64,000 nt of DNA. It comes from an uncultured Gemmatimonadales bacterium. GTDB lineage: Bacteria > Gemmatimonadota > Gemmatimonadetes > Gemmatimonadales > Gemmatimonadaceae. This document shows positions 713-21,256 of this stretch, one piece after another; the first letter of the stretch is position 1; each line of letters opens with the position of its first letter. The DNA lies in contig CAWKMU010000003.1 in assembly GCA_963850905.1 (NCBI GenBank), positions 1,824,001 through 1,888,000 on the forward strand, given 5' to 3'. A program made the translations under genes and the position numbers. A model generated the notes under the pieces. That model was not told where the DNA came from, searched no databases, and worked only from the letters and a program-made list of their open reading frames with translations.

Positions 713-3700
713 ATGGCGGACACGTTGCGAGAACAGCTCCAGGCGAGCCTGGGGTCGACCTATACGATCGGCCGGGAGCTTGGAGGCGGAGGGGATGAGC
801 CGCGTATTCGTGGCGGATGACACGACCCTCGGGCGTGCCGTCGTCGTCAAGGTGCTCTCGCCGGAGCTCACCGCGGGTGTCAACGTCGACCGCTTCAAGC
901 GCGAGATCCGGGTCGCGGCCCGATTGCAGCACCCGCACATCGTGCCGGTCCTGCAGTCCGGCGAGACCAACGGGCTGCCGTATTTCACGATGCCCTTCGT
1001 GGAGGGCGAGTCGCTGCGTGCGCACCTCGGACGCACGGGCCCGCTCTCCATTGGCGATGCGGTCTCGATTCTGCGCGACGTGGCGAAGGCCCTGGAGTAC
1101 GCTCATGCGCGCGACGTCGTGCATCGGGACATCAAGCCTGACAACGTGCTGCTGGCGGGGAACGCGGCCGTCGTCACAGACTTCGGCATCGCCAAGGCGC
1201 TCTCGGCGTCCAAGACACAGCCGTCTGGCGCGACGCTGACCCAAGCGGGGACATCGCTCGGGACACCGGCCTACATGGCACCGGAGCAGGCAGCCGCCGA
1301 TCCGGCGACGGACCATCGCGCGGACATCTACGCCTTCGGGATTCTCGCCTACGAGCTACTCGCGGGGCAACCGCCCTTTGCGGGTCGGACGCCGCAGAAG
1401 CTGCTGGCGGCCCAACTTGGCGAGCGACCAACGCCGATCGACAGTGTCCGCGCGGACGTGCCGCTAATGCTCGGCGAGCTGATCATGCGGTGTCTGGAGA
1501 AGAGCGCCGACGACCGGCCACAGAGTGCGGCCGCGCTGGTACGCGCGCTCGGCGCCGTGACCACGAGTGGCAGCGAGCGATCGGCCCCCGCGCTGCTCCT
1601 GGGCGGGCGAGCCGCGCTGCGGAACGCGCTTCTCATCTACGGCGCGGCGTTCCTCATCATCGCGCTTGCTGCCCGCATCGCGACCAACGAGATCGGGCTC
1701 CCTGATTGGGTGTTTCCCGGCGCGATCATCGTCATGCTGCTCGGGCTCCCGGTGATCCTGTTCACCGGGTACGTCCAGCGGACGGTGCAACGGTCGTTGA
1801 CGTCCACGCCGACGTTTACGCCGGGTGGCACCCCGGCGCCCGCCTCGACAATGGCGACGATCGCGCTCAAGGCGAGTCCGCACGTGAGCTGGCGCCGCAC
1901 CACCACCGGCGGAGTGGTTGCGCTTGGCGTGCTCGTGCTGCTCGTCACGGGGTACATGATCCTGCGTGCGCTCGGTATCGGACCCGCAGGGTCGCTGCTC
2001 GGCGCAGGGAAGATCCATGCGCGGGACAGGCTCATCGTGACCGACTTCCATGCGCTGAGCGGCGACACGTCGCTGGCGGGCGCGGCTAGCGAAGCCGTCC
2101 GCACGGATCTCAGTGAATCGGGTGTGATCTCGCTGCTCACGCCAGCTGAAGTTGCGAGCACGCTGCGTCTCATGCAGCGTCCGGCGTCGACACACGTCGA
2201 CGTGTTGGTTGCAGCGGACGTGGCGGCGCGACAGGGCGCGAAGGGCATCGTCAATGGGACTATCACTGGACTGGGTGCCGGCTATCTGCTCACGTTACGG
2301 CTCCTGAGCCCATCGGGCAGTGAGCTCGCATCCTTTCATGAAGAAGCGGACGGGCCGCACGAGCTGTTGCCGACGCTGGACCGTCTTGCGCGGCATCTGC
2401 GCGAGAAGATCGGGGAGTCGCTCAAGAGCGTGCATGCCGATCCGCCGCTCGAGCAGGTAACGACCTCGTCGATCAATGCCTTGCGGAAGTACGACGAAGG
2501 GGCCAGAGCGAACGACATCAATGGTAACTACGAGGTGGCCATCGCGCGCCTCCGGGAGGCTGTGGCGCTGGACACAGGCTTTGCCATGGCCTGGCGCAAG
2601 CTGGGTGTCGCGATGAGCAACTCGTTCATGCCGCGGGCCAGCGTCGACAGCGCCTTGACGCAGGCCTATCGCCATCGGGATCACTTGACGGAGCGAGAGC
2701 GCGACATGGCGGTGGGCTCTTACTTCAACCAAGGCCCGGGGCGCAATCGCGAGGAAGCGGCGACAGCCTTCCGGGCGATGCTCGCGATGGATCCCACTGA
2801 CTATGTGGCACTCAACGATCTGGCCATCACCTACCTAGATCGCCGTCGGTACGCCGCAGCGGACACGCTGTTCCGTCGCTCAGTCGCGACGGGGAAGGGT
2901 GGCGCGATCGACCTGGGCAATCTGGCCTTCGTTGAGCTTAGCGAGGGAGACACCGCGGCCGTTCGACGCGATGCCGCGACCATGCGTGAGCGATACCCCA
3001 ACGCCGCCGGCGCTCCCTTCTTGGGAGTCGGGTTGCTGTACGACTCGAACCAGTTGGACTCGCTTGTTGCCTTGCTTACGCAGATCCGAACGGATCCGCG
3101 ACCCGACCGGCGGAGCCTGGCCACGCATCTGCTCGCGGCCATGGCGTTGGTCCGCGGACGGCCCAACGAGTGGGCCGCCCTCAACGGAGAGTCGCGGCGA
3201 ACGGATGCGGAGCGCGGTGCCGCGCCGCCCCCGTTGGTTGACTCCATGTTGGCGGCCTGGACGGACATCTCTCTCCGTGGTCAGCCCGCTCGCGGTGTCG
3301 CGCGCCTCGATGCCATGCTCGCGCGGACGCCACTCGCCTCGGTGGGAGCGGAGGATCGACCGTATTTCCAGATTGCCGGGGCGTACGCCATCGCCGGTCG
3401 GCCGGACCGGGCGCGGGCGATACTCTCGGAGTACGCCGGAGAGGTCAAGGACACGGTGAAGCTCCGCGACGATGCGCCGGACATGCACGGCGTGCTTGGC
3501 GAGATTGCGCTCGCCGAGCACCGTCCCAAGGACGCGCACCGCGAATTCGCGCGCGCGGACACCGCCTTTGACGGGGAGCCCGTGCCCTGCGAGATCTGCT
3601 TCCCGCTAGCCGCTGGTCGTGCATACGACGCCGCGGGCAATCGTGATTCCGCGATCATGATGTATGAACGCTATCAACACGCCTGGAGACGCGACCTGCG

Positions 3701-3896
3701 CCTCAGCGTCGAACCCTGGTATCGATCGTTGGTTTACAAGCGCTTGGGCGAACTGTACGACGACAGGGGCGACGTCCCGCGGGCCACGGCCAACTACCGA
3801 CAGTTCATCGCGCTGTGGCAGAACGCGGAGCCAGAGCTGCAGCCAGCCGTGAGCGACGCCCGGCGCCGCCTGGCGAAACTGGGGTCGGATCGGTAG
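713..3896 (+). CDS. Membrane Ser/Thr protein kinase with extracytoplasmic TPR-like region; +1 frameshift at G-run 791-794
   Basis: ATG713 reads MADTLREQLQASLGSTYTIGRELGGGG, then one extra G before MSRVF; HRDIKPDN, DFGIAK and YMAPEQ motifs; TM helices; TPR-like helical repeats. Confidence 0.9.
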
Positions 3897-6317: not shown

Positions 6318-6890
6318 ATGCGTATCGCTGTGCTGACTATCTCGGACGCCGGGGTTCGAGGGGAACGAGCGGACACATCCGGGGACACGATCGTGGCTTG
6401 GGGGACGGCGCGTGGGGATGTCGTGACACAACGTGCAATCGTGGGGGACGAACCGGCTGAGATCGCCGCGCGGCTAGCGACGTGGTGCGACGCCGATGTG
6501 GCTGACCTCGTGTTGACCACGGGCGGGACGGGGCTGAGTGAGCGGGATGTGACACCCGAAGCCACGCGCGCGGTGATTGAGCGGGAGGCACCAGGGATCG
6601 CGGAGCGGATTCGCGCGCTCTGCCTCACGAGCTTCCCGAGGGCCGCGCTCTCGCGTGGCATGGCTGGGGTCCGTTCGCGGACGCTCATTGTGAATCTGGC
6701 CGGATCGACAAGCGGTGTTCGGGACGCCCTCGTTGCCCTCGACCCGATCATTACCCATGGGATCGACATCCTGCGTGGAGGACCGACGGATCACACGGCG
6801 GGAGGACGGGCGTCCAGCGGCCACACGGCTCGGAGCGGGCCTCCGGTCGGTACGAGCCCGGGCGGGTTGGCCGCGAGGCGCGATCCATGA
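6318..6890 (+). CDS. mog: MogA/MoaB-family molybdenum cofactor biosynthesis protein
   Basis: AVLTISD, DTSG, LTTGGTGLSERDVTPEAT, LSRG-AG and VNLAGS motifs. Confidence 0.88.
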   Translation: MRIAVLTISDAGVRGERADTSGDTIVAWGTARGDVVTQRAIVGDEPAEIAARLATWCDADVADLVLTTGGTGLSERDVTPEATRAVIEREAPGIAERIRALCLTSFPRAALSRGMAGVRSRTLIVNLAGSTSGVRDALVALDPIITHGIDILRGGPTDHTAGGRASSGHTARSGPPVGTSPGGLAARRDP

Positions 6891-8533
6891 ACGTTGCCGT
6901 GATGCTGACGGACGTCGAGCCCGCGGTCCGGCTCAACGCGCTGCTGGAACGGTCGGGTGCCAAGACCGAGGTCATCTCGCCGCTCGACGACGTGCGCGGG
7001 ATCCTCGGTCGCACCCGCGCCGACGTATTGGTCATGACCGGTGCGCTGCTCGATCCCCAGAACGTCGCGCTGGTGCGCGAGCAACTGTGGACCGGGACCG
7101 CGGTCATCGGCCTCTCCGACGTGGGTGAGGAGGGGATGGTCGAGCGACTGCGGGCGCTGGGGTACAGCGAGGTCTATATCAAGCCAGTCGTGCCCGAGGA
7201 GGTTGCGGCAGGTGTGAGACGCCTCGCAGACCGGCAGGTGGTGGCGCGCGAGACGGGGCTGTACGGTGACTCCGAAGGGATCCGCGAGGTGCTGGTCAAG
7301 GTTGAGCAGATGGCGCCAGTATCCAGCACGGTACTGATCGAGGGTGAGAGTGGAACAGGGAAGGAACTGGTGGCGAGGGCGATGCACCGACTGGGGCCCC
7401 GCCGCACGCGCCCGTTCATCGCTGTCAACGTCGGGGCGTTGCCCGAGACTCTGCTCGAGAGCGAGCTCTTCGGTCACGAGAAGGGCGCCTTCACGGGGGC
7501 GGCTGAGCGGCGGATCGGTCGCTTCGAGCTGGCGGATACGGGGCACCCTCTTTCTCGACGAGATCGGCGACATCCCACTCTCGACCCAGGTCAAGCTGCT
7601 GCGCGTGCTCGAGGAGCGGGTCAGTCACACGGGTCGGGGGGACGCGAGCCGATAGCGGTGGACGTACGCGTGATCACGGCGACCAATCGGCCGCTTCGCG
7701 ACCAGGTCGCTGAGGGCACCTTCCGGTCGGACCTCTACTACCGGATCAACGTCCTGAGCGTCTACCTCCCTCCACTCCGGGAGCGGCGGGAGGATATCCC
7801 CATTCTCGTCCGGCGGTTTATCCAGGAGTTCTCGGCGCAGCACGACCGGCCGTTCCACGGCATCTCAGGGGACGCGTTGCAGATGCTGGTGGACTACAGC
7901 TGGCCGGGGAACGTGCGCGAACTGCGCAATCTCGTGGAGAGTATGGTGGTGCTGTCGCCAGGCCATGAGATCCAGTCGGCGGACATTCCGCGCGAGATCC
8001 GGGAGGTTGGGTCGCGCTTTCTGCCGGTCCACGTAGGGCCCTTGGCCCGTGGCAGGGACGGTGCGGGCGGTCGGGAGATGGAGTTCATTGTCCGGAGTTT
8101 GGTGGAGCTCAAGCTGCAGGTCGAGGAGTTGCGACGCCGAACCGAGCAGGTTGCAGTGACGGGGGGCACCGGTCAATTGAGCTTTGGAGCTTCGATCGGC
8201 GCCGGCCAATCCCAGGCCATTGGCCCCGGCACCCCAACGGGTGCGGCTGGCGCCAGTAGTGGCGTGATGGTGCGCGAGGGAATTGCTGCGCCGGGTGCTC
8301 CGCCGCCTCCAAACGTCGTGACGGTTAGCCCGGGGATGACCATGGCGCAGATCGAGCGCGCGGCGATCGAAGCGGCGCTCAGAGAGACCCGGGGCAACCG
8401 CCGCCGTGCGGCGGAGATGTTGGGGATTGGCGAGAGGACGCTTTACAGAAAACTGCGGGAGTACGAAATCCCGGAGGGTGCGGGGGCGGAGGGGCCCGAG
8501 AGGGTTGACCTACTGGGAGTGGAAGGCAGGTAG
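6887..8533 (+). CDS. Sigma-54-dependent transcriptional activator (receiver-like, AAA+, Fis HTH); three apparent +1 insertions between about 7541 and 7640
   Basis: [31 protein letters not shown] and C-terminal [21 protein letters not shown]; the missing [26 protein letters not shown] segment lies in the +1 frame. Confidence 0.92.
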
Positions 8534-8770
8534 GACCCGCGAGGCCTTCTGCGGGGACTCTCTATGTCGCTGCTAGTGAGGGTCTTACCCAGATCGGTCG
8601 AGGCGGCCTAGGGAAGGCCAAGCGTGATCCGAACTCGCCGAGTCGGGCTGGAGGGCCTCAACGGGCGGGGTTGTGTCCCTTAGAGGACTCAAGGGTGACA
8701 TACGATGCCTTGATCGAACTGAACTAATGGCGCATATTCGCGGCGGAACCTTTTCCACGGCGGTATCTGT

Positions 8771-9706
8771 TTGCCCGCTGCAGTTAGCCTTTCCCCTAGT
8801 TCTGGGGGACAGTCGCACACGCCGATCGCCGGGAGCGTGCTCCCGATCCGGCGCGCTGAAGAATTGCTGACGACGCTGCCGGGCATTCTTTCGGCGAAGA
8901 TCGTGGCGTCGGCGAGCGGGGCTGTGGACGAGATCCACGTCCTGACGACAGCCGAATATACACCGAAGCAAACCGTCCGCAACATCGAGAGCGCGCTCAT
9001 CGCGCATCTCGGGATGCGCGTGGACCATCGGAAAATCTCAGTCGCAGCGAGCTCGGAGCGGCCGGTTGCGGCCGTGCCTCCGGTAGCCGTCGAGCCTCCG
9101 GTGACGCCAGCGTCGACCCCAACCCCTCCCAGCGCGGCTGCGCAGAGCTCGGCTCCGTCCGCGGCGCCTCGCCCATCAGGCCCAGTGGCGGTTCCCGAGG
9201 AAGCCCCTCCGCCGGTTGCGCAGGTGCGCGAGCGGGTGGTGGCCCGCGGGGTCGAGTTCGAGGAACTGGTGCGGGAGGTGGACTCGACGCTGGCCGCGGT
9301 AGTACCCGAGGAGGCGGCGCGGCGACGACTGTATTTCGAAGATGTGGAGGTCCGCCGGTCGCGGGCTCGCGGAGTGATGTGTCGGGTGACGCTCAGGAAG
9401 GGCGATCAGTCCTACACGGGAGAAGCGGAAGGTTTGGAGGGGGCTCGCGCGCGGGTGGACCTGGCCGCGCGCGCGGCGCTCAAGGCGATCGGCCAGGCCG
9501 AGCGCGGTGAGCGGACCCTCGCCCTCGACGGGGTAAAGCTGATCCAGGCGTTCGACCGAGAGTTCGTATTCGTCGGAGTGGCAGCGCAAGAGGGGCGGGA
9601 GCGCGCACTCTTGACCGGCAGCTGTGAAGTACGGGAGAGTCCCGAGCAAGCGAGCGTCTTAGCAGCGTTGGACGCGACCAACCGTTGGATCGCGCACGGC
9701 CGCTAG
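8771..9706 (+). CDS. Hypothetical two-domain protein: N-terminal EIHVL/PKQ-RNIES domain, Pro/Ala linker, C-terminal LeuA-allosteric-domain-like region
   Basis: Long ORF with host-like codon use; C-terminal pattern RVTL-KG-YTGEAEG ... TGS ... QASVLAALDATNR; start uncertain. Confidence 0.75.
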   Translation: MPAAVSLSPSSGGQSHTPIAGSVLPIRRAEELLTTLPGILSAKIVASASGAVDEIHVLTTAEYTPKQTVRNIESALIAHLGMRVDHRKISVAASSERPVAAVPPVAVEPPVTPASTPTPPSAAAQSSAPSAAPRPSGPVAVPEEAPPPVAQVRERVVARGVEFEELVREVDSTLAAVVPEEAARRRLYFEDVEVRRSRARGVMCRVTLRKGDQSYTGEAEGLEGARARVDLAARAALKAIGQAERGERTLALDGVKLIQAFDREFVFVGVAAQEGRERALLTGSCEVRESPEQASVLAALDATNRWIAHGR

Positions 9707-9758
9707 CACTCGTTGAGGCAGAGGGTGCGCGCCGGGAGGGGATGACGAGATGGCGATC

Positions 9759-9781
9759 CGGGCGGCTCGGTGGGCCGCCCG
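9759..9781 (+). terminator. GC-rich hairpin CGGGCGGCTC-GGT-GGGCCGCCCG downstream of the hypothetical gene
   Basis: Inverted repeat about 50 nt after the stop; no U-tract. Confidence 0.3.
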
Positions 9782-10059
9782 TCATCGCTACAGGGACAGG
9801 GGACTAGGGGCTGCGGTCAGGGCGCGACGACAACGATTAGCCAGTGTGAACCAAAGCGCACGGTCACGAAGGCAATGTTTGGACGTGAACGGGACAGAGG
9901 AGCAGTGAACCCAACCCACATCGTTTGACAACTGAACCCCCGTCTGGCCCGAGCTGAGCGAAGCGGGCAGGCCACGTAGGTGAGCGGAGCCAACCTTCAA
10001 TTGGCACGACTCAGCGAGCGCTGAGCGTGACTGCACGAGAGAGGGGGTGACGCAATCCG

Positions 10060-10149
10060 ATGTTTCTGGCCAACCCGTCGAAAAGTTTCATGAGCCGCGT
10101 TTTTGGCTTTTTTAGCATGATGCTGGGAGAAGTATTCGACGTATTGTAG
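10060..10149 (+). CDS. Small 29-aa amphipathic peptide MFLANPSKSFMSRVFGFFSMMLGEVFDVL (below the ORF-track cutoff)
   Basis: SD-like GAGGGGGTGA at 10041-10050, ATG10060, TAG10147-10149; ends 39 nt before the HD-GYP start. Confidence 0.6.
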   Translation: MFLANPSKSFMSRVFGFFSMMLGEVFDVL

Positions 10150-10188
10150 GCATCAACGAATTGCCGGGCGGGGGTTCCTTCGGGCTCT

Positions 10189-11512
10189 ATGAGCAACAAG
10201 GTCAGAGCATTCGTCGCGGCGGTAGTCGTAGGAGCTGCTTGCGGACTAGCTGCACTGATTGCCGGCGGAGATCCCATCACAGTCCGCTCGGCGCAGGCCG
10301 CGGCATGTTTTGCATGCCTTGGAATACTTGCACAATTCCTTTCGTATAGCGTGGACGGGAAGCGAGCCTCCACGGTTCTGCTCATACCGTATCTGTCGAC
10401 CATCTGACTTGGCGCCCACTTGGGTCGCGCTCGCGGCCATCGGCGGAGTTGCAACCGTCGGCGCAGTCATCATGAAGAGGTCTGCACTGAAAAGCACCTT
10501 CAATGTCTGCAAGACATTGCTAAGTGGCGCCCTTGCGATCGCGGTATATCGGGCTTTAGGCGGCACGGCGTGGTTAGTGCGATTCGACTTTAACTGGTTC
10601 GCTTACGTCGGGGCATACGCAACGTACCTGCTGGTCAACAACCTCCTTGTTGCGACCTTTCTGCGCCTTCAGGATGACGAGAGCCTGATCGGCGTCTTGC
10701 TGAGGTGGCCGGGAAGCTCGCTCGTTTATGACCTCCTGATGATTCCGATGGCGTATCTGTTTGCCGTCGTGTACCTCAGATTTGGTCCACTCGGAGCAAT
10801 GGCACTGGGGCTTCCCCTGCTGGCGGTTCGACAGCTTTACAAGACGAACTGGCAACTCGTCCGCGTGAACCAAGAGCTGCTTGAACTCATGGTCGCGGCG
10901 ATTGAGGCGCGAGACCCTTATACGTCGGGTCATTCGAGGCGAGTGGCGCGAAACGCCCGCATCATCGGACGCGCGCTGGGCCTTTCATCACGCGATGTGG
11001 ATCGTGTTGCGATCGCAGGTCTTCTTCACGACGTAGGCAAGATTCATGAGGTGTTCGCGCCGCTTCTGAGGAAGCCCGGCAAGCTCTCGCCTGAAGAGCG
11101 CTTGACGATGGAAACGCATCCCATCAAGAGCGCGGAGCTTGTGCAAAACGTATCGCATCTAGGCGATCTGGTTGCGGTGATCCGAAACCATCACGAAAAC
11201 TGGGATGGGACGGGCTATCCTGATGGACTAGGAGGAGAGGAAATTCCCCTTTTGTCTCGAATCATCATGATCGCCGATACGGTCGACGCGATGACAACCG
11301 ACCGACCCTACCGCGCCGCGATGGGAGAAGCGGAGGTTCGCGCAGAGCTACTCAGACTAAGCGGGAAGCAGTTTGATCCCGTGATGTGCGAGAAGCTTTT
11401 GGCGAGCACTCTCTACCCATCTTTGTTTGAGCGCCAATTAGCGAAGACGCCAGGCGAGATCCATTTGCTCCGCCGGCGAAGCCTTGGGGTGCGGGCGGCG
11501 ACGGGTTCGTAA
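10189..11512 (+). CDS. Membrane-bound HD-GYP cyclic-di-GMP phosphodiesterase with multi-TM N-terminal sensor; +1 frameshift near 10400-10410
   Basis: ORF 10189-10407 (TM helices) joins ORF ending at 11512; ARDPYTSGHSRRV, LLHDVGKI, HHENWDGTGYPDGL and DRPYR motifs. Confidence 0.9.
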
Positions 11513-11647
11513 GAGAAACGCCCGATCAGGCTTTGGGCAACGTGGAGGTTGCGTGTTCAAACCCAACGCATCCTCGGACCGTCACACTGCTTTCTCTCGC
11601 TTGGGGCAGCCAACTCGACGCAATACAACCCACCTGTGCCGAGTCAC

Positions 11648-14600
11648 CTACTGAAGAGCCTTGGCTAGAAACTTGGGCAAGGGTGAGCGCTCGCGCCGCT
11701 CGAACTCGACATAGTGCTGCAACAGCTTGATTGCCTTCTCACTTTCGCCTGACCTGTCACGAAGTGCCCACATTGCATACGCGGCAAAGTCCTGTCGGCC
11801 GGTTCTACTAGCGTGCCTGAAGGCGGTCTCAAACTCTTGCCTGTGGTGAAACTCCTCACCCGCGGCGAGTTGTGAAGTTGCCAGGATGGCGTAAGCTGCG
11901 CTCCTGAAGCGGAAGCATGACAGGTCGGCCCATCCGGCATAGTCGCGAAAGTCCTTCAGCGCCTCGTCACTCGGTCGGTCCTCTAGCAAACCAATTTGCG
12001 CCTGTGTGGCGTGGTACCTGCCGATCCTGGTTTCGCCATCCGGTGGGGCTGAGACTTCCTGACAAGCCGCTATCCAATCCTTTGCCGCTTCGAAGTTGCC
12101 CTCCTGAAAATAGCTCTTGAACAGACCTTCGGTGGCGGTGACTGCGGCACCGACGAGACCACACTCAGTGGCTATAGCCCGTTCTTCGGCCTGTAGGAGT
12201 CGAGCGCTCGTCAAGTCACCGAGGTAGACAAGGGGGGCTGACGCGTATTTGAGGGCTCGAATCAACTCGGTGACATTGTTGCTTCGTCTGCCCAGTGTGA
12301 CTAGGGCGCGTCCGGCCGCTACGCCCGCCTCCAAATCTCCGAAGATCGAGTGATAGAGGATTTCCGCCGTCAACTGGTGCTGTAGCAACTCATCTCCCCC
12401 ACCGACCAACTGTTTTACAACCAAGTGAGCCTCGGTTGCAGCTTGGGAGTCAGGGAGATTGAAGGCGAGCGACTGCGCCAACACACCTGCTTGGGCTCGG
12501 TGAAGTGGTGAGGCTTTGACACTCCGCACGCACCGCATCAACTTGCGCAACAATTCGTCGCCTTGACCGGTTGCGTACCATTTGGCTTCGAGAACGGCCA
12601 GTTCGGTGTCGTCATGCTCATGCTCGATTGGGTGACCGTCGGCGTTTTCACTGGCTGTCTCGGAAGCGACGCACAGCATCCTGTGCCACATTTGCGCTTC
12701 ACGAAGGCACACTATTAGTCCGCTGCGGATCTGTCTTTCACGCTCAGGATTCAGCGGCGTCAACTCGCGGGCGCGCTCCCAAATCGCGATCGCCTCGTTC
12801 GCAAAACCAAGCTGTAGGGCGTGGTCCGCGCACTTGGACATCAGCCTTGCCGCCGCCTCGACTTTGCGGGCTGCCCTGAGATGCTCGGCGCTGTCCCAGA
12901 GCAGCGACCCGTAATTCGTCGGCGTCAGATCCGCCTCGAGCACCTGGCCGATTCGCTCGTGCAGGAATTGGCCTGCCGTCGGGGAGAGCGATGCGAGCGC
13001 GGCCTCGGACAGCAGATCGTGCTTCGCATAGACAGCCTCGCCGTCGCACTTGAGGACCGATTGCGCGTCTAGGGCCTCCAATGCGTCGAGGACGTCGAGG
13101 CGGCGAAGATCGAGCACGCGCTCGAGCCGGTCCAGGGTGGAGTTCTTGCCGAGCAACGCACACACCTGCAGCACGCGCAAGGATTTTGGCGAGAGTTGCG
13201 AAAGCCTGCCGTCGATCGCCGCCAAGATCGACTGCGGGGGCGATTTCGTCGCCCCCTTCATGGCCCAGTGCGCCGCGAGCTCGCGCAGGAAATATGGGTT
13301 GCCCTCCGCGAGGCTGGCGTATCGCTCCACGACGTCGCGAGCGGGTGGTGCCGCACTGGAACCGGTCAGGGCGGCGAAGTGCTCGACAGACTCTGCATGC
13401 GACAGCGGGAGCACTTCCTGTAGCTGGAGTCCCGGCACAACGCCGCCAAGCACACCGTCCGGTGCAGGCGGCGTGCGTCCCGCGAGGAGCACCATGAGGC
13501 GGCGGTGAGCCGAGCGCCCGACCAATTCCCGAATCAGCTCCGTCGAATACGTGTCCATCCAATGAGCGTCGTCCACGACGATGAGGAGCGTGGTCTCCTC
13601 ACAGATTGCATCGATCAGCTCGAGCAGCGCCTGCCTGACGGCGGCGCATGCCGCTGGTGCGTCCGCTGCCTCCACCTGTAGTTGCTCGAGAAATCGGTTG
13701 CTGGGCTCGCGGGGGTGGCTCAGGCACAACAGATATTGGCGCGATCGCGGCGCGCATCCCAGCGCGCCCGGCATATCGAGGAGACCGTGTATGAGGTCGC
13801 AGAACACTGACAACGGTCGGCTGGAATCGCTGCGCTGACTCACCGTCCTCTGAATGCGCACGCCATCGAGCGCGGCCACCCGTGCGACCTCCAGCGCCAC
13901 TCTGCTCTTGCCGATGCCAGCGGGCCCCCAGAGGTAACAGATGTTGCCGCGTCCCGATTTGGCCGAGCGCAACTGGGTGGTCAGCCATGTCAGCGTTGAC
14001 TCCCGTCCGACCAGTGGGGACGCGGGCCCGGGTTCGTACGCCTGCGGCAAGCGTTCAGTAATCCGCTTTCGCAGGATCGTCGCTGGCAGGCGAATCTCAT
14101 TGGGGGCCGCACCCAGTTCGGACGTGTAGCGGTCGAGGATGGAGATGGCCTCGAGCTTGTTGCCGACCAGCGCGGTCGATTCCGCCAACGCGAGCGTCGC
14201 TTCTTCGTTGAACGGATCGAGCTCCAGACACCTTCGGGCAGCGTCGGCGGCTTCAGGCCACCGATTCAGTCGTCTGAACGTCGATGCATCTCGCAGCAAC
14301 GAGAGCCGGAGCCGCGAGTGCACGCCGCTCCGGACTCGGTCGAGCCATTCGGCAAACGCGGGGGAGAAATTCGGCGCGTAGCCTGGTAAGAATCCCCGCG
14401 CCGCGCGGGCGGGGGTCGGTGTCGCCGAGAGGTCGCCCTCGTAGTCCAGCCACACCATGCTTGCGGGAAGGCGCAGGTGACTCGGCGCATGTTCGAGCGG
14501 AAAACCCAGAGACCTGAGAACGTAGGCGAGGTGGCGCAGGGAATGTCGCGCTTTGGACTCGGGAAACTGCGGCCAGAACAGCTCCGCAAGATGTTGCCGG

Positions 14601-14740
14601 CCCAAGTCGGCATCGCGCTCGATCGCGAGGTACAACGCGAACGCGAAACGCATCTCCGCCTCCGGGCACACACGCGTTGCTCCGACTTCGACAACGCACC
14701 TGCCCATCGACCACAGACGGACCCGAGGGTGTGATGCCAT
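11648..14740 (-). CDS. Large regulator: winged-helix/BTAD (SARP-like) N-terminus, AAA (STAND-type) ATPase, TPR-like C-terminus
   Basis: ARHSLRHLAYVLR and LELDPFNEEA (BTAD); Walker A GPAGIGKS; Walker B LIVVDDAHW; AEGNPYFLREL. Confidence 0.85.
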   Translation of the reverse strand: MASHPRVRLWSMGRCVVEVGATRVCPEAEMRFAFALYLAIERDADLGRQHLAELFWPQFPESKARHSLRHLAYVLRSLGFPLEHAPSHLRLPASMVWLDYEGDLSATPTPARAARGFLPGYAPNFSPAFAEWLDRVRSGVHSRLRLSLLRDASTFRRLNRWPEAADAARRCLELDPFNEEATLALAESTALVGNKLEAISILDRYTSELGAAPNEIRLPATILRKRITERLPQAYEPGPASPLVGRESTLTWLTTQLRSAKSGRGNICYLWGPAGIGKSRVALEVARVAALDGVRIQRTVSQRSDSSRPLSVFCDLIHGLLDMPGALGCAPRSRQYLLCLSHPREPSNRFLEQLQVEAADAPAACAAVRQALLELIDAICEETTLLIVVDDAHWMDTYSTELIRELVGRSAHRRLMVLLAGRTPPAPDGVLGGVVPGLQLQEVLPLSHAESVEHFAALTGSSAAPPARDVVERYASLAEGNPYFLRELAAHWAMKGATKSPPQSILAAIDGRLSQLSPKSLRVLQVCALLGKNSTLDRLERVLDLRRLDVLDALEALDAQSVLKCDGEAVYAKHDLLSEAALASLSPTAGQFLHERIGQVLEADLTPTNYGSLLWDSAEHLRAARKVEAAARLMSKCADHALQLGFANEAIAIWERARELTPLNPERERQIRSGLIVCLREAQMWHRMLCVASETASENADGHPIEHEHDDTELAVLEAKWYATGQGDELLRKLMRCVRSVKASPLHRAQAGVLAQSLAFNLPDSQAATEAHLVVKQLVGGGDELLQHQLTAEILYHSIFGDLEAGVAAGRALVTLGRRSNNVTELIRALKYASAPLVYLGDLTSARLLQAEERAIATECGLVGAAVTATEGLFKSYFQEGNFEAAKDWIAACQEVSAPPDGETRIGRYHATQAQIGLLEDRPSDEALKDFRDYAGWADLSCFRFRSAAYAILATSQLAAGEEFHHRQEFETAFRHASRTGRQDFAAYAMWALRDRSGESEKAIKLLQHYVEFERRERSPLPKFLAKALQ

Positions 14741-16097: not shown

Positions 16098-17612
16098 CTA
16101 TCTCGCCTCGAGGACGGCCGGTGGCGTCCAGCTGCCGTCGAGGACCCCCACCTGCGGCCAATACGCCCGGAGGTACAGGGAGAATGCGCGCCCCTCAGGC
16201 GACGGCAACCAGTTGGCGCGACGGTCGTCGCTCGGTGGATCGGGCTGCACGTAAATGGTCAGCGAGCCGTCCGCGCCGAATTTCAGGGGCTTGTTCTTCG
16301 TGCCGACCGAATAGCGTTTGATGGGATTGGGGACGAAGAAGTGCTGCTCGTCGTACAGCGTCAGCGACCAGAACCCGTTGACCGGCGGTGTCTCGCCCCT
16401 CGCAAACGTCACGGTGTACTTCCGCGCCCCATTCAGCCGCTCGCCGCGCTCATCGAGATCCTGATAGTAGTACGTGGTCTCGCTCGGTGAATTCACGAAG
16501 ATGTTCGATCTCGCCACCGCGGTGCGCGTGAAGTAGTCGGTCCCGAACGCCGCTCCGTTGGAGATCGTGCTCCAGTGGTGCGGCAGCTGTTCGCCGAAGT
16601 TGCGGAACTGGAGCAGTGAATCCACGATCGTGGCGTCCGCGTCGACCGCGGCTTTGACCATCGCCGCCTTGAGTTTGGGGTCACCCTTGGCCGCTGTCAG
16701 CACTGCCAACAGCTGCGCGTACTGCGCTTCCTCCCCGCGCATCGGCGACGCATCCGCGAGGACCGCCCCGAGCTCGTCGAAGAATGTCTCTGGCCTCACC
16801 CACCTCACTTCTCCGGGACCGCTCGTCTCGCCGGGCCCAGTGGGGATCGCACTCCAATCCATGCTCTTCATGGTTCCGTCGTACTCGGCCAGCGGATACA
16901 TCATGATCTGGCGCAGCGGTGGCTGAATCGCCTGCTTGTCATCCGCCGTGTCGTCCTGAAACACGCGCGGCGCTACGAAGCCGGTGTTAGTCGGTGAGTG
17001 GAAGGCGCCCGTAATTCCCTTTGGGAGGTCGCCGCCTTGCCAATTGGGGCCGACGAGGAGGTAAAAGCCAGCCCGAGTCCCATACATCTTGCCGAGTTGC
17101 ACGAAGCTGTCCGTGCGCACATCCACGATCTGGTAGACCCAGAAGCGACTGCCGAAGTCCGGTACCTGGATGACTACGGGCGACAGGTCCAGTCCGAGTA
17201 GGCCCGCTCCATACACGACGTCCTGATTCGGGCAGGCGACGATCCGCTCTTCCGGGTCCACATAGTCGGTGAGCATCCCTAGTCGGTTCAGCGGCGCCGA
17301 TGGCACAGGGCCAGCGCGCATGATCTCTGGCACTTTGGCGAGCGCCAGTCGCCGGTTGTAGACGTTCACCATGGGCCACGCCCAGAAATAGGCGTCGCGA
17401 GCCACGAGCGCCGCATAGCCCTCCGTGATCTTGACGCGGAGATCAGGCCCCGGCGGCAGCGCGGTCGTGCTGGGCTTTGCCATGCGGTCGACCGTCTTGT
17501 CGGCGCGAGCGGGCGCTCCAGGAAGCGGCACTTCGCGCTCCAGTGGCGGGCCGCCCACGGGCGGCGTCGCGGGCCGTCTACTCGGCTCGGGTGTTCTCGG
17601 TTCGGTGTCCAT
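16098..17612 (-). CDS. DUF1254/DUF1214 domain protein
   Basis: AYFWAWPMVN, VACPNQDVVYG, PPVNGFWSLTLYD, NWLPSP and LYLRAYWP motifs. Confidence 0.88.
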   Translation of the reverse strand: MDTEPRTPEPSRRPATPPVGGPPLEREVPLPGAPARADKTVDRMAKPSTTALPPGPDLRVKITEGYAALVARDAYFWAWPMVNVYNRRLALAKVPEIMRAGPVPSAPLNRLGMLTDYVDPEERIVACPNQDVVYGAGLLGLDLSPVVIQVPDFGSRFWVYQIVDVRTDSFVQLGKMYGTRAGFYLLVGPNWQGGDLPKGITGAFHSPTNTGFVAPRVFQDDTADDKQAIQPPLRQIMMYPLAEYDGTMKSMDWSAIPTGPGETSGPGEVRWVRPETFFDELGAVLADASPMRGEEAQYAQLLAVLTAAKGDPKLKAAMVKAAVDADATIVDSLLQFRNFGEQLPHHWSTISNGAAFGTDYFTRTAVARSNIFVNSPSETTYYYQDLDERGERLNGARKYTVTFARGETPPVNGFWSLTLYDEQHFFVPNPIKRYSVGTKNKPLKFGADGSLTIYVQPDPPSDDRRANWLPSPEGRAFSLYLRAYWPQVGVLDGSWTPPAVLEAR

Positions 17613-18574: not shown

Positions 18575-18859
18575 GCGGCACCTCGATGGAGAAAATCGAA
18601 CTGGCTGCGCCCTCGCCCGTCTGCGGAGATCGCGCCAGCGCTCGCTCGACTTGGATGCGGGGCGCCGATGTTGTTGATCTGCGTCGAGTTGCGATAGCCG
18701 CTCTACATCAAGGCCGCGCGAATCGACCCCCCGGTGTGATGCAGGCCTGCCACGTTCCGACGCTCAGTCACGCCACACCACCAGGTCCGTGTGGCGAAGC
18801 TGCTCGGGGTCGCTCGTGTCCTCTGGAAGGGTCGCGCTCGAGGGATAAGTTCTATAGGC

Positions 18860-21256
18860 ATGAGCACTGCACTCCGCGAGATTCGGTACGCCCTGCGCCG
18901 GCTGAGTCGCAGCCCGATGTTCACGATCGCGGCGACACTCACGCTGGCGATCGCGATCGGCGCGACGGCATCGGTGTTCGGGCTCGTCAATGGTGTCCTG
19001 CTCAAAGCGTTCCCGTACCGCGAACCCGATCGGGTGTTCGCGATCTGGGAAAGCAGCCCGCAGCGTCAGTTCCCGCAGTTTGCCGTGGCGCCGGCAAACT
19101 ACCTCGATTGGCGTGCGCAGAACCACACCTTCACGACGCTGGCGGCGGTCGCGTACCGAGACTACACGGTGACGGGGGCGCAGGAACCGGAGCGAGTCGT
19201 GGGGATGCAGGTGACCCCGAGCTACTTCCCCGTGCTTGGCGTTACGCTCGCGCGGGGGCGTGGGTTGGCGCCGGACTCCGGAGGCTCGCCAGAGGTCGTC
19301 CTCGGGTACGGCTACTGGCAACGTCGATTCGGCGGCTCGCCAGCGGCGCTCGGCGAACGCCTCACGCTCAATGATACCGTCTACACGATCGTGGGCATCA
19401 TGCCGAGGGGCATACCGGATAAGGCGGATCTGTGGACTCGCCTCAGCTTCACGGGTCGGCAGGCGGCGACGCGCGACAGCCACTATCTCGGTGTGTTTGG
19501 GCGCCTTCTCCCGGGCGTATCGCCAGAGGCGGGAGCGGCGGAGTTGCGGACCATCGCTCAGCGCCTGGCGATGGCCTATCCCGCGGCCGACCAGAACTGG
19601 ACGGTGGTTACGGTCCCGCTCACCGATCAGGTAGTCGGAAAGGTCAGACCAGCGCTGGTGATGTTGTTGTTGGCCGCTGCGTGCGTACTACTCATCGGCG
19701 CCGCCAACCTGGCGAACCTGTTTCTCGTCCGGTCGTTGGCGCGGCAGCGTGAGCTTGCGGTGCGCACGGCGCTTGGGGCGGCGCGCGGCCGGATCGTCCG
19801 CGAGTTGCTCGTTGAAGCCGGTGTGCTGGGGCTGTCCGCGGGCGCGCTCGGTGTCGGCGGAGCCGTGGTTGGTGTCCGCGTGCTGCGGACCCTCGCTCCG
19901 CCTGTGTTGCCACGTGTGAGCGAGATCGGGGTCGACGCTCGAGTCGTCGCGTTCTGTGCACTCACCTCGATCGCGGCAGTGTTGCTGTTCGGTATGCTCC
20001 CGGCGTGGCTGGCAGCGCGCGCGCGTCTCGCCGACGTGTTGAAGGAGGGTGGACGCGGCACCGGATCGGCACAGAGCCGCGTATTCCAGGACGGACTCGT
20101 CGTCCTGCAGGTAGCCGTTGCTCTCGTGCTGCTGACCGGAGCGGGCCTTCTGGTGGAGAGCTTCTCGCGCTTCGCGCACATGGATCCTGGCTTCAGGCCA
20201 GAGGGCGTGCTCACTGCGCAACTCACATTGCCGGCGCAGCGCTATCCAACGCCTGAGCAACAGACAGCGTTTGTGTCGGCCGTTCTGGAGCGGTTGTCGG
20301 CCGAACCCGGCGTCGTCGCGGCCGCTGCGGGGGACGCGCTGCCCAACACGACACTCAATCAAAACGTGTTTGCCATCATTGGCGATCCGGTGCCTGACCC
20401 TACGCACGTCCCGCTCGCCTATGCCATCGGTGCGAGCCCCGAGTACTTCCACACCCTCGGGATGCGTGTGCTTCGCGGCCGCGGGCTGATGCCAAGCGAT
20501 GGGATCCGCGCACCCAAGGTGGCGGTGGTCGATGAGCTGCTGGCGCGGCGGTATTTCGCCGGACGCGATCCAATCGGCCAACGCTTTGTGTTCAGGGACA
20601 CGCCAACAGGGCCCGACACGATCCAGATCGTAGGGGTGATCGCGACGGTCAAGGAGGGGGGACTCGCTTCCGACGACTATCCGGAGATCTACGCACCGCT
20701 CGCGCAGTACAACGAGCCCGTCATAGCGCTGGCCGTGCGCGTCTCGGGCGATCCGGAGGCGCTGACGGCGCCGCTCCGCCGAGTCGTTGCCAGTGTCGAT
20801 CCGACGGTCCCGTTGTCCGAGATCCGAACCATGAGTGCGTGGATGGCGCGGTCGATCGACACGACGCGGTTCTCAACGTTCCTCGCCTCGCTCTTCGCCG
20901 TGGTCGCTCTCATCCTCGGCATGGTCGGCATCTACAGCGTGTTGGCGTACATCGTGAGCCAGCGGCGGCGCGAGATCGCGGTGCGGATCGCGCTTGGTGC
21001 GACGGCGGGGGCGGTCATACGCGACGTGCTGCGTCGCGCGCTGGCGCTCGCCGGGGCTGGCATCGTGGTCGGTTCGCTCGCCGCGTGGATGCTCACGCGC
21101 GGACTCGCCGGCCTGTTCCTGGGCGTGAGTCCGCACGACCCGCTCGTGTTCGTCGGAGCGGCAATGATCTTCGCGCTGGTGGCGCTAGTTGCGGCGAGCA
21201 TTCCCGCGCTTCGCACGACGCGGGTCAATCCGGTGGAGGCGTTGACGTCGAGCTGA
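18860..21256 (+). CDS. Duplicated ABC-transporter permease (MacB/FtsX x2, ADOP type)
   Basis: EIRYALRRL-RSPMFT, LLIGAANLANL, RELAVRTALGA and RRREIAVRIALGA motifs; no adjacent ATPase gene. Confidence 0.9.
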   Translation: MSTALREIRYALRRLSRSPMFTIAATLTLAIAIGATASVFGLVNGVLLKAFPYREPDRVFAIWESSPQRQFPQFAVAPANYLDWRAQNHTFTTLAAVAYRDYTVTGAQEPERVVGMQVTPSYFPVLGVTLARGRGLAPDSGGSPEVVLGYGYWQRRFGGSPAALGERLTLNDTVYTIVGIMPRGIPDKADLWTRLSFTGRQAATRDSHYLGVFGRLLPGVSPEAGAAELRTIAQRLAMAYPAADQNWTVVTVPLTDQVVGKVRPALVMLLLAAACVLLIGAANLANLFLVRSLARQRELAVRTALGAARGRIVRELLVEAGVLGLSAGALGVGGAVVGVRVLRTLAPPVLPRVSEIGVDARVVAFCALTSIAAVLLFGMLPAWLAARARLADVLKEGGRGTGSAQSRVFQDGLVVLQVAVALVLLTGAGLLVESFSRFAHMDPGFRPEGVLTAQLTLPAQRYPTPEQQTAFVSAVLERLSAEPGVVAAAAGDALPNTTLNQNVFAIIGDPVPDPTHVPLAYAIGASPEYFHTLGMRVLRGRGLMPSDGIRAPKVAVVDELLARRYFAGRDPIGQRFVFRDTPTGPDTIQIVGVIATVKEGGLASDDYPEIYAPLAQYNEPVIALAVRVSGDPEALTAPLRRVVASVDPTVPLSEIRTMSAWMARSIDTTRFSTFLASLFAVVALILGMVGIYSVLAYIVSQRRREIAVRIALGATAGAVIRDVLRRALALAGAGIVVGSLAAWMLTRGLAGLFLGVSPHDPLVFVGAAMIFALVALVAASIPALRTTRVNPVEALTSS

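Follow-up and report, generated by a model that had tools for sequence, protein, structure and literature searches.

A small ORF within a conserved structured RNA upstream of a predicted MASE9-HD-GYP phosphodiesterase gene: a four-part module with a candidate peptide input into c-di-GMP turnover

What does a 29-codon open reading frame (ORF) do when it is preceded by a strong ribosome-binding site and followed by a gene for a multi-pass membrane HD-GYP protein? The question is raised by positions 6318–14740 of the window, a 64,000-nucleotide (nt) stretch of contig CAWKMU010000003.1 from an uncultured Gemmatimonadales bacterium (assembly GCA_963850905.1), for which a preliminary description had proposed that the encoded peptide acts on the membrane sensor, or on the TPR region of a convergent regulator, in a quorum-like circuit with cyclic di-GMP (c-di-GMP) turnover as its output. 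The ORF listing and the domain scan of the window located six ORFs there, as a co-oriented run converging on a STAND-like regulator (Table 1). The run is real and its arrangement, conserved across the order, goes beyond chance. Its core consists of four parts: a protein with a LeuA-type regulatory fold, a structured RNA, the small ORF lying within this RNA, and the MASE9-HD-GYP protein. The module is wider in taxonomy and narrower in gene content than first outlined, and the structured RNA and a sigma-70-like promoter at 8710–8738 were both absent from that account. As an answer to the question, the peptide as a trans-acting ligand or partner of MASE9, setting c-di-GMP turnover, has about an even chance of being correct.

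Relatives of the locus were found in Gemmatimonadota. The locus set comprised 121 loci, including the window and five duplicates, and 82 of these hold the HD-GYP gene. Of 61 related genomes, 60 contain a match to the LeuA-fold protein, a tally that takes in the unpublished genome G016. A rule combining the conserved box of the RNA, a ribosome-binding site and an ORF of 14–40 codons is satisfied in 76 of the 82 HD-GYP loci (among these ORFs that of L115 is a doubtful pick, and the frame of L038 was corrected by one base), and four more were recognized by a looser look; the small ORF with its motif is therefore present beside the HD-GYP gene, and in synteny with the LeuA-fold gene, in 80 of 82 loci, as the idea of a peptide partner had implied. 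The 85 untruncated loci encode 82 distinct peptides of 15–35 residues, built of a hydrophobic body, with a helical-moment peak at 100 degrees, and a polar six-residue tail, which often opens with D or E and ends in an aromatic residue. Tryptophan (Trp) occurs within the last three residues of 73 of the 82 peptides; five places before it stands A, S, G or P (56/73) and four places before it D, E or G (53/73). Ten close, non-independent pairs differ by 34 synonymous and 11 replacement changes. Judged by this pattern of substitutions and conservation, the small ORF is a real conserved gene under purifying selection. The peptides match no NCBIfam or Pfam family over the cut-off (31 of 51 were long enough to be scanned). 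In the window itself the ORF sequence is matched without differences by one short-read contig, covering 10004–10178, from run X1, which may be the source sample.

The 5' end of the non-coding stretch upstream of the small ORF pairs with the sequence just past the stop codon, enclosing the ORF in an RNA fold. In an alignment of 45 sequences, chosen from 75 anchored ones, 8 of 13 pairs of this long-range helix, P1, change on both sides. Pairing reaches 89.1% in the complete 23-pair structure, compared with 79.7% for shuffles and 39–49% when it is slid, and 116 cells change on both sides, against 42; the structure was derived from the same 45 sequences, which favours it over the slid controls. 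The invariant features are the AG dinucleotides at 5-nt spacing, at which the AG-AG distance peaks, the GAGCGGAGCC box, the hairpin with its bulged A and the extended Shine-Dalgarno sequence. Less telling were an energy-based strand test of the helix, which was neutral (45/85), and an excess of G-U over A-C pairs (78 vs. 24), which is biased, the register having been chosen with G-U rewarded. Cognate arms rank first in 12 of 85 all-against-all duplexes, a low ranking due to the C-run/G-run core shared among loci. No match to Rfam 15, including its c-di-GMP riboswitches, was found in the window, and 16 relatives and two Bacillota loci gave only weak matches far below the gathering scores. An RNA with covarying helices and invariant motifs, outside any Rfam family, it is undescribed in the literature searched. 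The AGCG motifs were also considered as SARP-type DNA repeats. As their main role this was rejected: the distance separating them from the third box varies between 12 and 35 nt (most often 22), they lie inside a covarying RNA fold, and loci in which no BTAD gene was found still keep them. They may serve as DNA sites in addition.

The module is not confined to one phylum. In a search of a plasmid collection Subdoligranulum variabile and Natranaerobius thermophilus, both Bacillota, were found to carry all four parts, each record having AGCG repeats, the enclosing helix, a hydrophobic ORF of 25–28 codons, a membrane HD-GYP gene and, in addition, a gene for a DUF5317 membrane protein. The small ORF is not in the Bacillota gene table, which is known to be incomplete; in Natranaerobius (L162:4938–6736) the HD-GYP and DUF5317 genes are each annotated in two pieces. 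The two Bacillota loci and 80 metagenome loci, to which taxa were not assigned, form a wider set of 82, of which 60 have an HD-GYP gene downstream. In each of the 60 there are at least two AGCG(A/G) motifs together with a hydrophobic ORF of 14–50 codons (two of the picks lie in a wrong overlapping frame), a combination that occurs in 1.8% of shuffles and in 2 of 45 upstream controls. At least 12 long-range pairs are formed in 57 of the 60 loci, against 84 of 180 controls, and in the 29 loci of non-Gemmatimonadota type there are 4.1 AGCG(A/G) motifs per 170 nt, against 0.3 in controls. Matches to the mog, activator or regulator genes occur in only 7 of the 60 HD-GYP loci (8/82 overall), and in each of the seven the peptide is of the Gemmatimonadota type; with flanks of 4 kb, the regulator could be detected only to a limited extent in this set. 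The peptides of the wider set start with K or R in 46 of 54 cases, their hydrophobic run often ends in small residues, several read as a signal peptide followed by a polar tail of about 20 residues, and many have an aromatic tail. By these features their build, of a signal-peptide-like kind seen only outside Gemmatimonadota, appears to be that of an exported precursor, export itself being putative.

A short amphipathic peptide, a strong ribosome-binding site and paired mRNA ends are also features of the hok and aapA mRNAs, and they would be accounted for if the peptide were toxin-like, as in type I systems, or some other independent membrane product, with its mRNA locked by 5'-3' pairing and its link to the HD-GYP gene one of position only. 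The fixed association with MASE9-HD-GYP across phyla argues against such a peptide, as do the single copy of the element and the viral contigs, among which a search via the LeuA-fold protein found no relatives; this explanation is very unlikely.

The gene following the small ORF encodes a predicted c-di-GMP phosphodiesterase. The catalytic domain matches HD_5 (E 1.6e-34) and 4mcw (Z 25), and its motifs EARDPYTSGHS, LHDVGK, HHENWDGTGYP and DTVDAM are intact; HD-GYP domains hydrolyse cyclic dinucleotides. In the window this gene reads as two frames, split near 10406, and the upstream activator gene contains a scrambled stretch. The extra base at 10406 is absent from short-read contigs of runs X1 and X3, and those at 7624 and 7644 from contigs of runs X1 and X5, and the apparent frameshifts at these three positions are therefore assembly errors; near 7540, where the scrambled stretch starts, no short-read row shows an extra base. 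The N-terminal membrane domain MASE9 (PF20972, cut-off 24.3 bits) scores 17.5 bits in the broken frame of the window, 31.2 and 27.3 bits in the orthologues of L073 and L032, and over the cut-off in 30 of 61 genomes of the phylum. An intact orthologue was modelled with a predicted local distance difference test (pLDDT) value of 89.6, and its membrane part matches S-components of energy-coupling factor (ECF) transporters: NikM-type 4m5b (Z 14.6, root-mean-square deviation (rmsd) 3.5, 189 residues aligned), RibU 5kbw (Z 14.0, rmsd 3.0, 160 aligned) and FolT (Z 13.1). For helical bundles the tool advises caution at about such Z values; many further S-components stand in the match list, and the rows for the membrane part are consistently of that family. 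On the model, MASE9 has the ECF S-component fold. ECF S-components are ligand-binding membrane pockets. MASE9 diverges faster than the catalytic domain (mean distance 0.73 vs. 0.40), and the G+C content is 44% in the small ORF and 58% in the HD-GYP gene, with about 66% in the genome; the low G+C content at 10060–11512 together with the fast divergence of MASE9 resembles exchanged specificity cassettes. It is also worth mentioning that in eight loci (L043, L047, L085, L087, L094, L110, L119 and L135) the HD-GYP protein has an N-terminal extension with a conserved RL(Q/K)PRPW motif, and the extended proteins pair with short peptides of 16–19 residues.

If MASE9 reads the peptide, the two might be expected to diverge together. 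The distance between peptide tails follows that between MASE9 domains, with partial r 0.20–0.25 (p 0.001–0.002) in 32 complete loci with the upstream genes controlled, and r 0.134 (p 0.004) in 56 loci with the leader RNA controlled as well. In the 32 loci the values are 0.00–0.08 for the catalytic domain and −0.05 for the upstream protein, and the tail does not track the leader RNA. This covariation, a signal from sequence distances, is weak but specific and is taken as a lead only; together with the S-component fold it makes MASE9 the better candidate of the two partners initially named. A residue coupling between an acidic tail and an aromatic residue at MASE9 position 146 (22/23 vs. 11/33) was dropped, being lost when counted as independent pairs.

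The alternative partner was the TPR region of the BTAD-AAA regulator encoded convergently, in a circuit that the sigma-54 activator would drive. The regulator does follow the HD-GYP gene in 52 of the 56 Gemmatimonadales loci whose sequence extends far enough, and a partial r of 0.295 (p 0.007) points to some shared history of its AAA domain with the HD-GYP domain. In six loci (L033, L037, L038, L046, L048 and L202) the cassette of RNA, peptide gene and HD-GYP gene runs opposite to the upstream gene; the regulator is carried along in four inverted cassettes and was not found with those of L048 and G009, and the promoter of the inverted cassettes was not found in those genomes. Against a role as receptor, the peptide tail shows no significant correlation with the C-terminal region of the regulator (r 0.03–0.06, 32 loci), and the regulator tracks the upstream genes rather than the peptide. 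Peptide and HD-GYP genes are moreover kept where the regulator was not found: in G009 (98% complete), with the cassette inverted and 12 kb away, and in six loci of distant classes of the phylum, where neither mog nor the activator nor the regulator was found in 4 to 16 kb. G039, first considered as a further case of regulator loss, was dropped, the regulator being present beside a second HD-GYP gene. The sigma-54 promoter fares no better: its scores upstream of the LeuA-fold gene equal those of shuffles (106 regions), and by a strict pattern none was found upstream of the small ORF (35 regions). Reading of the peptide by the TPR region is thus very unlikely.

A sigma-70-like pattern, derived from the same regions, is present in 59 of 106 regions upstream of the LeuA-fold gene, against 0.6 expected from shuffles, and none was found within 420 nt upstream of the ribosome site of the peptide in 85 loci. 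The sigma-54 activator and the mog gene, both in the run named by the preliminary description, are not supported as parts of the circuit: they are lineage neighbours, missing from the distant loci. The BTAD regulator is a more constant neighbour, though the module can do without it. The label of the latter holds, with AAA_16 and TPR in the window protein and BTAD, which does not score there, known through orthologues: among seven of these, AAA_16 was found in all, TPR in four and BTAD over the cut-off in two, and a winged helix-turn-helix (wHTH) domain was sub-threshold in one. The N-terminal domain of the activator (window 6887–7250) is receiver-like, lacks the usual phospho-acceptor and is conserved across the order.

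The protein encoded upstream of the RNA was modelled (pLDDT 78.8) as two domains joined by a disordered linker. Its C-terminal domain matches LeuA 3fig (Foldseek E 7e-5) and 3f6g_B (Z 9.4, rmsd 3.3, 110 aligned); it has the regulatory fold of LeuA and citramalate synthase with no catalytic domain attached, which bears out its initial naming as LeuA-regulatory-like. In the N-terminal domain a common alpha-beta-beta-alpha-beta fold is combined with K and R residues that are invariant, and its matches to CDF C-terminal, EscJ and BolA-like domains (Z 7–8.4) are not diagnostic. No Pfam match was obtained, and no family came from a PDB sequence search or the protein atlas; clustered at 50% identity, the family counts 2259 representatives. 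The source genome also encodes a paralogue in which the LeuA-like domain stands alone (153 residues; G000:C4:209094–209552), with no RNA element nearby, and a similar, weaker second match occurs in most relatives.

According to the reading of the peptide as a MASE9 ligand, the LeuA-fold gene, the RNA and the HD-GYP gene would be transcribed from the sigma-70-like promoter at 8710. Helix P1 would close a stable small mRNA of about 240 nt, formed by processing or partial termination, which would give far more peptide than enzyme. The hydrophobic body would bring the peptide to the membrane, where its short aromatic tail, probably cut after a small residue, would enter the MASE9 pocket of S-component type. 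Peptide synthesis would be tuned by the LeuA-fold protein, which probably dimerizes and senses an amino-acid-like ligand, through its binding to AGCG(A/G) beside the ribosome site; this is the weakest step. The peptide might either leave the cell, in a quorum-like manner, or stay in the membrane of its producer, and either direction of its effect is allowed. That the module works like a peptide-to-membrane-sensor system with c-di-GMP output, in which binding, export and quorum character are putative, is an evenly balanced proposition. The fullest version, a signalling system spanning phyla in which an exported aromatic-tailed peptide is read in strain-specific pairs by the transporter-derived pocket of MASE9 and a dedicated amino-acid-sensing RNA-binding protein governs synthesis of the peptide via AGCG(A/G) in a new class of RNA, is tentative and rather unlikely as a whole.

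Several observations weigh against this reading. The peptide of the window is itself one of the nine without a terminal Trp, and a basic N-terminus is found in only 10 of the 82 Gemmatimonadota peptides. Because DUF5317 was not found in 81 genomes of Gemmatimonadota, no processing or export gene is identified in the phylum. The plain rho between tail and MASE9 is only 0.17–0.21, with related taxa treated as independent; a tree-aware test leaves 3–4 independent pairs (p 1), and label changes number nine on the MASE9 tree, nine on the catalytic tree and 11 on the upstream-protein tree. The LeuA-fold protein is a candidate binder of the RNA, proposed from co-occurrence and conserved basic residues. 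The transcript data are of limited reach too: the RNA runs were chosen for holding part of 9700–11600 and yield contigs only, with no strand, ends or level. Close-matching metatranscriptome contigs from four soil studies cover 9923–10122, 9942–10165, 9949–10165 and 9954–10105; one more distant contig lies on the element, and one has a 67-base partial match in the LeuA-fold gene. In four of the five RNA runs found, no contig lies on the HD-GYP gene, which is not proof of its low expression. The contigs hint at a discrete abundant RNA.

An RNA seen without its neighbours could also be the main actor, as a riboswitch or as a sponge titrating the LeuA-fold protein via AGCG(A/G), with the peptide as a secondary membrane modulator. 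Invariant unpaired nucleotides, the bulged A and motifs repeated across phyla agree with this, and TRAP (PF02081) and CsrA (PF02599) were not found in 5 genomes, 4 of them at least 90% complete, so that any protein binder would be another one. Such a role is unlikely, given the Rfam results, the presence of one copy of the element in G000 (a separate pattern search was too loose to serve for copy counts) and the selection on the peptide, which it leaves unexplained.

The main rival of the MASE9-ligand reading is a cis-acting leader, in which a ribosome finishing the small ORF, or pausing at its Trp codon, opens the helix for translation of the HD-GYP gene or for read-through, the peptide itself being of minor importance. 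The conserved ORF and ribosome site upstream of a consistent main gene, the frequent terminal Trp and the RNA contigs that stop short of the HD-GYP gene are all in its favour. It also predicts the position of the 3' arm in Gemmatimonadota, which speaks against a purely trans-acting peptide: the G-run of this arm mostly ends 11–15 nt past the stop codon, lies 10–18 nt before an ATG in 43 of 64 loci, and is followed by a U-rich tract in 21 of 64. In 17 of 24 callable non-Gemmatimonadota loci (29 were examined), however, the HD-GYP start is 19 nt or more past the helix, so masking of the ribosome site is not the general role of the latter. Many peptides of these loci lack Trp or have long polar tails, amino-acid character is conserved along the peptide, and the tail tracks MASE9, not the leader. 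A peptide gene also persists without its enzyme: in G009 a second intact copy lies behind the upstream gene, followed by a terminator-like hairpin and by no HD-GYP gene, and in L144 an intact copy precedes a truncated HD-GYP gene. Both fit a trans-acting product, and recent loss may also explain both. At L035:5358–5435 an orphan peptide gene carries the Trp tail of the family, with a degenerate leader before it and a terminator-like hairpin after it. As the principal explanation the cis-acting leader is possible, yet doubtful. The helix may serve as the stem that closes the ends of a small mRNA, to which coupling may be added in Gemmatimonadota, and cis and trans roles are compatible.

Among characterized proteins, TM1467 of Thermotoga maritima and HdgA of Streptomyces venezuelae have the same MASE9-HD-GYP architecture. 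In the available passages of the paper by Galperin and Chou (bioRxiv 10.1101/2021.11.05.467447) MASE9 is defined and its ligand left open, as one probably bound within the membrane; those on hdgA (PMC6205966) report low expression and mutants without a phenotype, explained by the authors through the lack of an activating signal. These passages mention no upstream peptide or RNA, the word 'peptide' being absent from the first of the two, and the S-component fold found here does not appear in those on MASE9. The S-components themselves (NikM 4m5b/4m58, RibU 5kbw, FolT) share their fold with the membrane domain, whereas MASE9 is fused to HD-GYP, is 6–14% identical to them and lacks transport partners in the locus; a common fold does not in itself reveal a ligand.

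In the ComX-ComP system of Bacillus and the AgrD-AgrC system of staphylococci a tiny peptide gene likewise precedes a multi-pass membrane sensor, and peptide and sensor both diverge fast here. ComX carries a conserved Trp near its end. In contrast to Agr and ComQXP, the output here is a phosphodiesterase and not a histidine kinase with a response regulator, no AgrB- or ComQ-like gene was found among the window ORFs scanned, the peptides match no family, and the peptide gene lies inside a conserved RNA fold. With SHP-Rgg and ComS-ComR of the RRNPP group (PMC8605241; PMC13361665) the module shares a hydrophobic leader with a short tail and an adjacent TPR-bearing regulator, whereas the neighbour here is a STAND-type BTAD-AAA-TPR protein that does not covary with the peptide. 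Sequence comparison thus places the module outside Agr, ComQXP and RRNPP. MgrB and SafA, which act on PhoQ, are small hydrophobic products acting on a membrane signalling enzyme, as is proposed here; here, in contrast, the peptide would be co-transcribed with its target in a structured RNA, and its variable tail looks like a specificity determinant. The upstream-ORF motifs of PMC11109978 likewise place an ORF, conserved in its start, stop and ribosome site, before a main gene. TRAP sites resemble the RNA in their AG repeats at 5-nt spacing and short purine repeats near a ribosome site, and differ from it, as do CsrA and leader control in general, in that the binder genes were not found in the 5 genomes, the downstream ribosome site is often outside the helix and no Rfam family applies. 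No description of the module was found in the literature, where the supplement of PMC11109978 could still hold the RNA.

To our knowledge, most membrane sensors on c-di-GMP enzymes are without a known ligand, MASE9 among them. The module offers a named ligand candidate that can be synthesized, a pocket open to mutagenesis and naturally occurring pairs of peptide and sensor for exchange, and the claim can be tested directly, since some hosts of MASE9-HD-GYP genes are in culture. Should the peptide be exported, peptide signalling between cells would be linked straight to second-messenger turnover with no kinase or transcription factor between them, in a host phylum that is abundant in soil and has few known signalling systems. 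Both the RNA and its candidate binding protein are undescribed in the literature and databases searched.

Table 1. Features of the locus, in window coordinates.
Feature	Position	Strand	Place in the module and basis
Mog/MoaB-type molybdenum cofactor protein gene	6318–6890	+	Upstream neighbour, outside the module; MoCF_biosynth match; in 84/103 loci of the order
Sigma-54 activator gene, degenerate receiver-like N-terminus	6887–8533	+	Upstream neighbour, a role in the module not supported; in 97/103 loci of the order
Sigma-70-like promoter, predicted, TTGATC-17 nt-CATATT	8710–8738	+	Upstream of the LeuA-fold protein gene; pattern count vs. shuffles
Two-domain protein, C-terminal LeuA/citramalate-synthase regulatory fold	8771–9706	+	Core; structure model, fold matches
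Structured RNA	9934–10177	+	Core; encloses the small ORF
P1 long-range helix, 5' arm	9934–9948	+	Core RNA; 15 contiguous pairs with 10163–10177
AG/AGCG(A/G) repeats at 5-nt spacing and conserved GAGCGGAGCC box	9951–9991	+	Core RNA; invariant alignment columns
Hairpin with invariant bulged A at 10030	10003–10032	+	Core RNA; 97% of cells paired, 4/6 pairs change on both sides
Extended Shine-Dalgarno sequence AGGGGGTGA of the small ORF	10042–10050	+	Direct reading; GGTGA invariant in 45 sequences
29-codon ORF, amphipathic hydrophobic body and short polar tail, terminal Trp absent	10060–10149	+	Core; conservation, DNA contig match
P1 long-range helix, 3' arm	10163–10177	+	Core RNA; ends 11 nt before the HD-GYP start codon
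MASE9-HD-GYP c-di-GMP phosphodiesterase, predicted, about 440 residues	10189–11512	+	Core; HD_5, metal/GYP motifs, MASE9 in orthologues
(wHTH)-BTAD-AAA_16-TPR STAND-type regulator	11648–14740	−	Convergent accessory neighbour; beside HD-GYP in 52/56 Gemmatimonadales loci

Elsewhere in the window the neighbours are ordinary: a Ser/Thr kinase with TPRs (780–3896), a DUF1254/DUF1214 protein (16098–17612) and a MacB/FtsX-type permease (18791–21256). Many short-read contigs (L071–L150) end within about 2 kb past the LeuA-fold gene, which suggests strain-level variability at the cassette. In a sister family (L063:2245–3954 and L064:2248–3924) a gene with 4Fe-4S, Fe-hydrogenase-like and GGDEF domains lies between the sigma-54 activator and LeuA-fold genes, so that one gene run would hold both the phosphodiesterase and a predicted diguanylate cyclase of redox type; at that place all eight loci L063–L070 show a gap of about 1.9 kb, the gene content having been scanned in L063 and L064. 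In L063 (4808–5407) a gene with HTH_17 and receiver domains is also inserted between the LeuA-fold gene and the RNA, and a similar gap is present in L065.

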